The position numbers and the translations under genes were made by a program. The notes under the pieces are model-generated. The model was given only the letters and a program-made list of their open reading frames with translations. It was not told the origin of the DNA and did no database searches. A stretch of 64,000 nt of DNA from Octopus sinensis (taxonomy: Eukaryota): NCBI RefSeq assembly GCF_006345805.1, contig NC_042999.1, forward strand, positions 76,756,001 through 76,820,000, in the 5' to 3' direction. Below are positions 55,580 through 58,970 of the stretch, piece by piece (within the stretch, counting starts at the first letter, position 1; each line of letters begins with the position of its first letter).

Positions 55580-55622
<43 letters not shown>

Positions 55623-55782
55623 CGTATATTTGCCATTTCAATATGGCTACCCCTAAGGGTGGATGCTACTGTAGTTTTTAGCCCCAGGAGGACACACTCC
55701 TCCAGCTGGCCATAGACGCACTTTCTGTGTCCTGTCAGTATTTGCAAAGGGAAGTCATCCTTCCCGTCTTCAACTTATGATA

Positions 55783-55827
55783 CACACGGACTCGAGTTTC
55801 GAGGTATTGACCTCTCGTCAGCGTGTG
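55783..55827 (-). ncRNA. Type I hammerhead ribozyme (copy 1)
   Basis: Reverse complement reads CACACG-CUGACGA-GAGGU-CAAU-ACCUC-GAAA-CUCGAG-UC-CGUGUG; predicted cleavage between 55789 and 55788. Confidence 0.9.
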
Positions 55828-56079
55828 ACAATCATAGTTGTCGCCGAGAATTAGATTTCCTTCACAAATACTTATACTTTTTCCAGCGTCCACTGTCGCT
55901 GATATTGAAAAAGTGAAATCAAACAATGATAAATATCAAAGTGAGTTATATACAGTAGCGGTAACACATCGTGACGTATATTTGCCATTTCAATATGGCT
56001 ACCCCTAAGGGTGGATGCTATTGGAAAAAGTATAAATATTTGTGAAGGAAATCTAATTCTCGGCGACAACTATGATTGT

Positions 56080-56124
56080 CACACGCTGACGAGAGGTCAA
56101 TACCTCGAAACTCGAGTCCGTGTG
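56080..56124 (+). ncRNA. Type I hammerhead ribozyme (copy 2)
   Basis: Stem I CACACG/CGUGUG, core CUGACGA 56086-56092, stem II GAGGU/ACCUC with CAAU loop, GAAA 56107-56110, palindromic stem III ACUCGAGU, GUC triplet 56116-56118. Confidence 0.92.
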
Positions 56125-56431
56125 TATCATAAGTTGAAGACGGGAAGGATGACTTCCCTTTGCAAATTCTGACAGGACACAGAAAGTGTGTCTATGGCCA
56201 GCTGGAGGAGTGTGTCCTCCTGGGGCTAAAAACTACAGTAGCATCCACCCTTAGGGGTAGCCATATTGAAATGGCAAATATACGTCACGATGTGTTACCG
56301 CTACTGTATATAACTCACTTTGATATTTATCATTGTTTGATTTCACTTTTTCAATATCAGCGACAGTGGACGCTGGAAAAAGTATAAGTATTTGTGAAGG
56401 AAATCTAATTCTCGGCGACAACTATGATTGT

Positions 56432-56476
56432 CATACGCTGACGAGAGGTCAATACCTCGAAACTCGAGTCCGTGTG
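56432..56476 (+). ncRNA. Type I hammerhead ribozyme (copy 3)
   Basis: Same as copy 2 shifted by 352 nt. Stem I reads CAUACG/CGUGUG (C>U retains pairing as a U-G wobble). Predicted cleavage after 56470. Confidence 0.9.
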
Positions 56477-56689
56477 TATCATAAGTTGAAGACGGGAAGG
56501 ATGACTTCCCTTTGCAAATACTGACAGGACACAGAAAGTGTGTCTATGGCCAGCTGGAGGAGTGTGTCCTCCTGGGGCTAAAAACTACAGTAGCATCCAC
56601 CCTTAGGGGTAGCCATATTGAAATGGCAAATATACGTCACGATGTGTTACCGCTACTGTATATAACTCACTTTGATATTTATCATTGTT

Positions 56690-56906
<217 letters not shown>

Positions 56907-58724: not shown

Positions 58725-58970
58725 CAGTTAATCGCTACCAAGAAATGGTTGATAGCTACCAAAAAATAGTTAATTGCTACCGAGAAATAATTTAGTGTTA
58801 ACAAGAAGTAGTTAATTGCTGCCAAGAAATAGCTTATTGCTGTCGGAAAATAGTTGATTGCTAACAAGAAATGGTTATTTGCAACAGTTAATATAGTTAT
58901 TTCTATCAACAATTGGTAAATCGCTACCAAGAGATGATTAGTTACTACTCAGAATAGTTCATTGCTTCTA
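58725..58970. repeat. Degenerate 21-bp minisatellite, about 11 units
   Basis: Consensus close to TAGTTAATTGCTACCAAGAAA. Confidence 0.8.

Follow-up and report, generated by a model that had tools for sequence, protein, structure and literature searches.

Does a hammerhead ribozyme with a short palindromic stem III cut its RNA singly or as a pair of copies, and how does DNA that carries such ribozymes come to lie in tandem? Both questions are raised by a repeat of Octopus sinensis that we analysed in a stretch of 64,000 nucleotides (hereafter the window, whose numbering is used throughout) and in the genome searched, which comprises 2.72 Gb. A preliminary description of the site had noted a hammerhead motif with a bulged, extended stem I and a palindromic stem III, and had proposed that a tandem arrangement may be required for double-hammerhead activity. 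The observation is confirmed and the interpretation as a whole is partly supported, with double-hammerhead cleavage as a prediction from the sequence. Although the flagged architecture is textbook knowledge, the family offers unusually clear evidence, at the level of sequence, on two mechanistic points. Published work is cited here for the accessible portions of each paper.

A noncoding repeat whose units each carry a type I hammerhead motif

The motif at 56067–56136 is, by its sequence, a canonical type I hammerhead. Its core follows CUGANGA / GAAA / UH with an open helix I, and its helices have the sizes of that type (helix I of 6 bp, helix II of about 4 bp, and a short helix III with a small palindromic loop). 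The stretch between the arms of stem I carries CUGACGA, then stem II and GAA, followed by the palindrome ACUCGAGU and then by C17. The features of the motif and of its two further copies are as follows.

56067–56136, plus strand: hammerhead copy 1 with extended stem I (pairing, fold and Rfam alignment)
56419–56488, plus strand: hammerhead copy 2, 352 nt downstream of copy 1, carrying 56434 C>T; predicted cleavage after 56470
55771–55840, minus strand: hammerhead copy 3, within the inverted arm; predicted cleavage after 55789
56077–56079, plus strand: UGU, the 5' strand of the internal loop in stem I
56093–56106, plus strand: stem II, GAGG/CCUC, with hexaloop UCAAUA at 56097–56102 (Rfam alignment and loop letter counts)
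56110–56117, plus strand: palindromic stem III, predicted to form an 8-bp helix across two copies (covariation counts, trees and duplex energy)
56118, plus strand: C17 (GUC), monomer position 97, with cleavage predicted 3' of this base from its place in the Rfam alignment
56125, plus strand: U1.7, the unpaired base on the 3' side of the internal loop, predicted to make a Hoogsteen contact with the last A of loop II

Searches with cmscan returned the hammerhead model RF00163 at 56080–56124 (+) and 55783–55827 (-), each with 32.2 bits and an E-value of 7.8e-6, and at 56432–56476 (+) with 28.5 bits and an E-value of 1.4e-4. A scan of the whole window against Rfam at gathering level gave no match, the best hammerhead score of 32.2 lying below the RF00163 cut-off of 34 bits. 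Matches in the window to Rfam microRNA models were rejected as artefacts to which the inverted arms and the AT runs give rise. The motifs share with the Schistosoma-type members of RF00163 the core, a proximal stem I of 6 bp, a stem II of 4 bp, a six-base loop ending in A and an 8-nt palindromic stem III, but differ in their scores of 32.2 and 28.5 bits against the cut-off of 34 and in the sequences of their helices. RF00163 itself draws stem III as four pairs without a loop, so that a palindrome in this place already belongs to the model of the family.

The motifs had been described as lying in tandem, which holds for the two direct copies; the third is on the opposite strand, so that only two hammerheads are in tandem. 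As first described, the change at 56434 is the sole difference within the three 45-nt motifs and yields a U.G wobble. Among the window-type copies listed it is restricted to the window's own locus (L001), and contigs from four public runs mostly carry C at this position. It was therefore ruled out as covariation and gives no evidence of selection. The predicted fold energy of the 70-mer is better than that of 197 of 200 shuffled sequences (z -3.06), mostly owing to stem I, and its minimum-energy fold contains stem I and lacks the catalytic stems II and III.

The motif recurs with a period of 352 nt, in a repeat that occurs three times at this site (twice in direct orientation and once inverted), with (AT)n runs on either side of the set. 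The whole insertion spans 55616–56689, and position 1 of the monomer corresponds to 56022.

56022–56689, plus strand: direct arm, monomer positions 1–352 and 1–316 (repeat alignment)
55616–56023, minus strand: inverted 5'-truncated arm, positions 215–352 and 1–270, with its end at 270 (repeat alignment)
56644–56689, plus strand: 46-bp tail, positions 271–316, at one end only, matching the tail described for Penelope-like elements (bioRxiv 2021.04.23.441226; PMC11167929)
55582–55618, no strand: (AT)n run of the left flank (repeat finding)
56689–56903, no strand: (AT)n run of the right flank (repeat finding)
56119–56470, plus strand: predicted unit-length RNA of 352 nt, freed by two cuts, and predicted to be a highly paired circle (circular fold)
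56234–56308, plus strand: predicted multibranch RNA domain round the recurrent 3' end at position 270 (56291), from the predicted fold and one covarying U-A/C-G pair

The circular fold of the 352-nt unit is predicted at -109.5 kcal/mol, a value reached by none of 60 shuffles (z -4.3). GC content is 0.40 over 55773–56134, and the repeat holds no LTR layout and no ORF apart from one frame that runs into the AT run. The window at large (1–64000) is dense in microsatellites, with a GC content of 29–43% and no convincing ORF of at least 120 amino acids by eye, and includes a degenerate 21-bp tandem repeat of 11.5 copies at 58726–58966.

At least 189 matches to the repeat were found in the genome, from 40 of 1,662 candidates that were scored. 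An exact 16-mer near its 3' end has 1,215 genome matches and an exact 19-mer just past the predicted cleavage site has 1,431, with none for the reversed-pattern control in either case. Loose pattern searches recovered subfamilies 67–99% identical to the window copy. Arrays elsewhere in the genome range from two to more than ten units, and arrays of at least ten units occur on small contigs (G000:C4486:20000-24733 and G000:C11432:24277-27966). Target duplications of about 10–12 bp were seen by eye at three loci (L072, L074 and L100). Twenty of 24 public runs listed, under nine organism labels, contain 59–91% of the sampled words, and none is recorded as RNA; four runs guessed to be RNA, taken as contigs, report the presence of the repeat only, ends and circles not being visible in contigs.

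Tandem units of about 150–450 bp, each with a type I hammerhead, define non-LTR retrozymes (PMC7229834), and the repeat has this form. Metazoan members of the class (mussel, 350–390 bp; axolotl Rtz_353) are alike in carrying one type I hammerhead per unit in a noncoding tandem repeat of low GC content, and also in their dispersed copies, strongly paired predicted circles and target duplications of more than 4 bp (PMC7229834). They differ in that the window repeat has a sequence of its own, and its circular RNA is a prediction. By these sequence features, the repeat is a protein-free non-LTR retrozyme that constitutes its own family of a known class.

An extended stem I and its probable contact with loop II

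Stem I pairs CAAC-TATGAT-TGT-CACACG (56067–56085) with CGTGTG-T-ATCATA-A-GTTG (56119–56136). Sixteen pairs (4 + 6 + 6) and an asymmetric internal loop had been reported, and both are present, the loop being 3x1 (UGU / U); a single bulged A had gone uncounted. The extended helix, whose lack of conservation among genome-wide copies had been named as one ground for refutation, is conserved and covaries across subfamilies. In a hand-picked set of 35 copies spread across subfamilies, both sides have changed in 10 of 22 named pairs, and 95.1% of paired cells are complementary versus 19–50% when the partners are slid. The covariation score was reached by none of 500 shuffles and the pair count by 65 of 500, in a test for which the tool warns that related sequences alone can give such scores. 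Double changes, including A-U/G-C, occur in the proximal, middle and distal (CAAC/GUUG) helices. An earlier set of 28 copies gave the same picture of stem I and a further helix outside the 16 bp. A distant family (L306–L309) has other stem I letters yet shares the 6 bp, the 3-nt bulge and, in most cases, U1.7.

Conservation of the loops was evaluated in 106 distinct motifs from the examined loci, selected for paired stem I helices with the loop letters left free. The 5' side of the internal loop is 3 nt long in all 106 under the search pattern, its first base is U in 105, and U1.7 is U in 101. In loop II, position 1 is U in 103 motifs, position 3 is A in 105 and position 6 is A in 103. The preliminary description had drawn a CAAU loop on a stem II of 5 bp, whereas the Rfam alignment gives 4 bp and the loop UCAAUA. 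The proposed fifth pair (U39-A44) was rejected: a change on both sides was never seen, and the two bases are therefore read as loop ends. CAAU had also been proposed as the target for mutation, but the likely contact, A 56102, lies outside it.

The stem I internal loop is thus likely to dock on loop II through U1.7 (56125) and the last A of the loop (56102). A Hoogsteen contact between these bases is present in the Schistosoma and sTRSV structures, and was non-essential in the trans assay of the same report (PMC11875169). At G10.1-C11.1 the window subfamily pairs canonically; C.A or U.U mismatches occupy this place in older subfamilies.

The centre of stem III covaries

The eight bases at 56110–56117, ACTCGAGT, form a perfect palindrome, as had been stated. 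The amplified stem III variants are likewise self-complementary (CUCGAG, CCCGGG, CUGCAG, CCAUGG, CCUAGG and, by way of a wobble, CUCGGG). For the third pair of stem III, exact matches genome-wide number 1,068 for U-A, 224 for U.G (CTCGGG) and 230 for C-G, against 19 for the mismatched C.A, all of which lie in older backgrounds as expected from decay; reversed-pattern controls gave 0 for each of the four states. The U-A pattern permitted a gap of 14–24, and the gap was 14 in all 100 matches listed.

When the first central base was forced to be other than C, 533 genome matches were obtained with a pattern that excluded the centres CA, CT and CC. By hand count among the 100 of these that were listed, 67 centres are self-complementary (GC 54, TA 7, AT 6), 21 are wobbles (19 of them TG, the product of CpG decay) and 12 are unpaired. 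The hexamers in the same 100 are CTGCAG (51), CCTGGG (12), CCATGG (6), CCTAGG, CTTGAG and CTAGAG (4 each), CTTAGG and CTTGGG (3 each), CCGCAG, CTACAG and CTGGAG (2 each) and seven singles. The centres CA, CT and CC account for 6 occurrences, in six different hexamers, among 100 matches listed with stem III left free (again counted by hand). Twenty of the loci with a non-C centre were fetched, and their CTGCAG copies belong to the same 352-bp repeat; CCATGG and CCTAGG were found in a further subfamily and in the distant family with a different stem I.

In a tree of 84 copies from which stem III had been cut out, well-supported branches force at least 6 changes for U-A, 4 for U.G and 2 for C-G; this tree retained 8 of 93 near-identical copies, and its sample was enriched by stem III state. 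In a tree of 45 rows, the CTGCAG copies form one clade (11 rows, support 96/93) nested within a CCCGGG clade (100/98), such that four changes separate the two hexamers and the palindrome is kept. The covariation rests on a handful of events in master lineages rather than on copy counts, in trees whose copies were chosen by stem III state. Every amplified stem III state observed is, by its sequence, able to pair across two copies.

The two central bases covary although a single hairpin gives them no means of pairing, a pattern suggestive of a double hammerhead. Predicted energies agree in direction: a 2-bp stem III destabilizes the monomer fold by 1.5 kcal/mol, whereas the 8-bp duplex is worth -10.7 kcal/mol, and the duplex of the C.A variant gains only 1.3 kcal/mol. 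On this sequence evidence, pairing of stem III across two copies is likely, and the RNA would be cut as a dimer. The earlier proposal of a double hammerhead is upheld by the covariation and the trees as far as pairing between copies is concerned, but not in its suggestion that the tandem arrangement may be required. Monomers of invertebrate retrozymes with a 2-bp stem III and a tetraloop cleave well (PMC7229834), two separate RNAs could pair, and the tandem layout is explained by the way in which the element is copied.

The same observations can be turned into an alternative, which we consider unlikely though the strongest of its kind: the monomer would cleave well through its contact between stem I and loop II, dimer pairing would be an optional boost, and the tandems would be no more than a by-product of reverse transcription that runs round a circle and of two cuts being necessary. 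The invertebrate monomers with a similar stem III speak for it (about 0.8/min in coral and 0.1/min in mussel; PMC7229834), as do the canonical G10.1-C11.1 pair of the window subfamily, compared with the mismatches of older ones, and the evidence given below that tandems arise at insertion. It nevertheless leaves the joint change of the central bases (CG, GC, AU, UA) in amplified lineages unexplained, and the predicted probability of stem III in the monomer is near zero.

A palindrome can also be kept by mutation rather than selection. When the template is switched at a quasi-palindrome, in reverse transcription or in the replication of DNA, one half is copied onto the other, and the four-base jump from CCCGGG to CTGCAG with few intermediates (CCGCAG 2 and CTGCGG 1 among the 100 listed), together with the strand switching evident in the inverted arms of the element, would fit such a process. 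We consider it very improbable: the amplified wobble CTCGGG, with its 224 matches, pairs at the RNA level and forms no palindrome in DNA, the palindrome arms measure just 4 bp without a spacer, and the stem III of a second hammerhead family, ACATGTGT, pairs only with G.U.

Insertion ends of the Penelope type

Insertions were surveyed at 70 loci from the first 100 matches listed for the 16-mer (contigs C1 and C2), which after removal of 9 duplicates left 61 insertions with 101 arms. The 3' ends of the arms fall into two groups, 52 at positions 259–276 (37 of them exactly at 270) and 43 at 309–318, with 6 elsewhere. Inverted insertions number 37, and 33 of these have one end near 270 and one at 309–320, about 43–46 bp further; of the remainder, one has two short ends and three are of other kinds, and two long ends were found in none. 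The 5' starts, which might pile up at the cleavage site as a trace of cleavage in vivo, are scattered: seven of the 101 arms begin at 93–101 (93, 94, 95, 98, 98, 100 and 101), and neighbouring downstream bins of 9 nt hold 3–8. At one inverted insertion (L105:2112-2535) both arms begin at position 98, the first base past the predicted cleavage. The predicted cleavage site is crossed by 34 of the 101 arms and 20 exceed 352 bp; the usual template is therefore a circle or an uncleaved multimer rather than a cleaved linear monomer.

With 3' ends that are fixed, 5' ends that scatter and lengths of more than one unit, the arms suggest that short tandems arise at insertion. A one-sided tail and an inverted 5' copy are known from Penelope-like elements (PLEs; bioRxiv 2021.04.23.441226), where they have been attributed to reverse transcription that begins, at nicks in AT-rich DNA, from two internal sites (PMC11167929). 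The repeat has the one-sided tail, the inverted 5'-truncated arm and the AT-rich target of an element mobilized in this way, and from these sequence marks it is probably copied by Penelope-like machinery. The multibranch domain at 56234–56308 is a candidate recognition site for the reverse transcriptase in the modelled fold; RNAalifold returned two small helices only for the 3' domain, from an alignment with truncated rows. Terminal copies that end at 270 (window 55618 and many loci) often carry T at 268 where internal copies have G, as though the (AT)n primer had overwritten the template base.

An autonomous element is present. A young Penelope-like family (L145:1832-3247(-) and L258–L264) encoding a reverse transcriptase (RT) and a GIY-YIG nuclease has 150 of 150 scored matches at 98–100% identity, open frames of about 784 amino acids, (AT)n ends, a one-sided tail of its own of about 37 bp and a Cys motif ahead of the nuclease, as described for Neptune and Nematis. 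Near its 3' end lies a hammerhead-like motif of the minimal kind, which has a U3-A8 core and the palindrome ACCGGT. Comparison of the repeat with this one autonomous family detected no shared sequence (best match E 0.34). The family, found beside L145, was accordingly not accepted as the partner element, its target and tail pattern being alike but no sequence being shared. No such ORF lies between units, and a PLE-like frame is nearby in 2 of 40 loci of 7.9 kb (L138 and L145); at L145 an AT run separates the frame from the repeat, and the frame has its own, different end.

Relative to PLEs (Neptune/Nematis, Naiad, Poseidon) and their non-autonomous derivatives, the repeat is alike in its 5'-truncated partial tandems, inverted 5' arm, tail at one end and (TA)n targets. 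It differs in having no ORF, a tail of 43–46 bp versus 30–40 in the accessible descriptions, and a full canonical hammerhead versus the minimal pLTR type. The minimal PLE hammerhead has a short helix I, an ill-defined loop 1 and a long helix II (PMC4209133), whereas the repeat has a long conserved helix I and a helix II of 4–5 bp.

Core variants and other hammerhead families

A lineage with the core substitution U4C (CCGAUGA) has 324 exact matches (for example, L268:1501-1533(-) and L276:1501-1533(+)), so that a probably weaker ribozyme has also spread. It accounts for 17 of 43 rows in an unbiased listing of copies, and a second group with U4C is found among the CTGCAG copies. In a viroid, the substitution reduces activity in vitro but leaves enough of it in vivo (PMC3088659). 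The CUGA core is present in all 93 distinct copies at least 95% identical to the window. CUGA subfamilies nest inside a U4C grade at support values of 0.89 and 0.29, which are weak, and we do not claim reversion.

A search with RF00163, in which 74 candidates were scored, returned other hammerhead families. The second family mentioned above scores above the Rfam cut-off (L031 and L034–L037), with tandem spacing of about 431 bp at L036 and L037 and inverted arms at L034; its stem III can self-pair only with G.U. The distant family at L306–L309 has the stem III ACCATGGT and the same layout of 6 bp and a 3-nt bulge. Minimal PLE-type motifs with a long stem II occur at L034:1691-1725, L126:5927-5966, L147:4726-4763, L072:2555-2595, L121:1650-1690 and L130:2756-2795, some of them with the palindrome ACGATCGT.

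We give little credence to the idea that the copies are terminal-repeat debris of an autonomous PLE, or that cleavage is dispensable and uncleaved read-through RNAs serve as templates, even though the PLE-type ends, the spread of the U4C core, 5' ends without a sharp pile at the cleavage site and PLE insertion in vitro without need for cleavage (PMC11167929) could all be so explained: the units lie head to tail with no ORF between them, the core, the bulge, U1.7 and the helices persist in subfamilies 67–99% alike, the close copies retain CUGA throughout, and U4C is active enough in the viroid.

Relation to known double hammerheads and retrozymes

Canonical type I hammerheads of metazoans with a short palindromic helix III, and their folding as dimers, have been described (PMC4209133; legend of Figure S8 in PMC3088659). 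Newt satellite 2 and ASBVd have double hammerheads (Forster 1988, via PMC4209133 and PMC3088659) that are alike in the weak stem III of the monomer and its self-complementary loop, by which a pair of copies can build a single long stem III. They differ in that the repeat has 2 bp and a tetraloop versus the weaker newt type, and in that dimer action is here deduced from covariation. The accessible text of PMC7229834 assigns dimer dependence to vertebrate retrozymes (axolotl) and monomer activity to invertebrate ones, and there PLEs are only proposed as retrozyme mobilizers (Cervera and de la Pena 2020). A 2026 preprint (10.64898/2026.07.22.740005) argues in its accessible part for a PLE origin of retrozymes from co-occurrence and pLTR trees, favours unequal crossover for the tandems, and finds cleavage in only 1 of 9 Xenopus dimers. 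For cephalopods, PMC6962438, as far as accessible, only counts Rfam hammerhead matches in a squid genome.

Our literature search, outside which subscription papers and supplements largely lay, returned no report of covariation within a family at the palindrome centre and none of a PLE tail on retrozyme insertions; either may be in print. Dimeric PLE hammerheads are reportedly the subject of a 2017 paper.

A model for the family and its implications

The reading that we favour, and regard as probable, is that of a non-LTR retrozyme whose stem III pairs between copies, whose tandem transcripts are cut to unit RNAs, and which Penelope-like machinery copies into AT-rich DNA. Docking of the stem I internal loop on loop II, through U1.7 and the last loop A, would allow fast cleavage at cellular concentrations of Mg2+. 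Two copies, most simply neighbours in one tandem transcript, would form one stem III of 8 bp, as the covariation implies, whereas a lone monomer would cleave slowly. By analogy with the literature, a host ligase of the RtcB type would close the monomer into a circle, which would stay intact because only one hammerhead lies on it. To judge from the insertion ends, a Penelope-like endonuclease would then nick (AT)n or AT-rich DNA, and the reverse transcriptase would start within the RNA at 270 and at 313–316. It could pass the cleavage site and exceed one unit, producing the partial tandems and inverted arms.

Taken jointly, and tentatively enough that we place it somewhat short of an even prospect, the family could be read as a natural mutagenesis series. 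A canonical invertebrate hammerhead of a supposedly monomeric class would have been selected to cleave as a dimer, which would keep the one-ribozyme circle from reopening. The two fixed 3' ends and the arms longer than a unit would directly record, in the genome, internal starts by a Penelope-like reverse transcriptase on a circular retrozyme RNA. The U4C lineage would indicate how little cleavage the cycle needs. The natural variants of stem III are a ready-made set for a cheap cleavage test.

Two points are left open in the accessible text of PMC7229834, namely what keeps retrozyme circles from being cleaved again and by which element retrozymes are moved. The octopus family offers evidence from sequence on both, on the first through the covarying centre of its palindrome and on the second through its Penelope-type tail and inversions.
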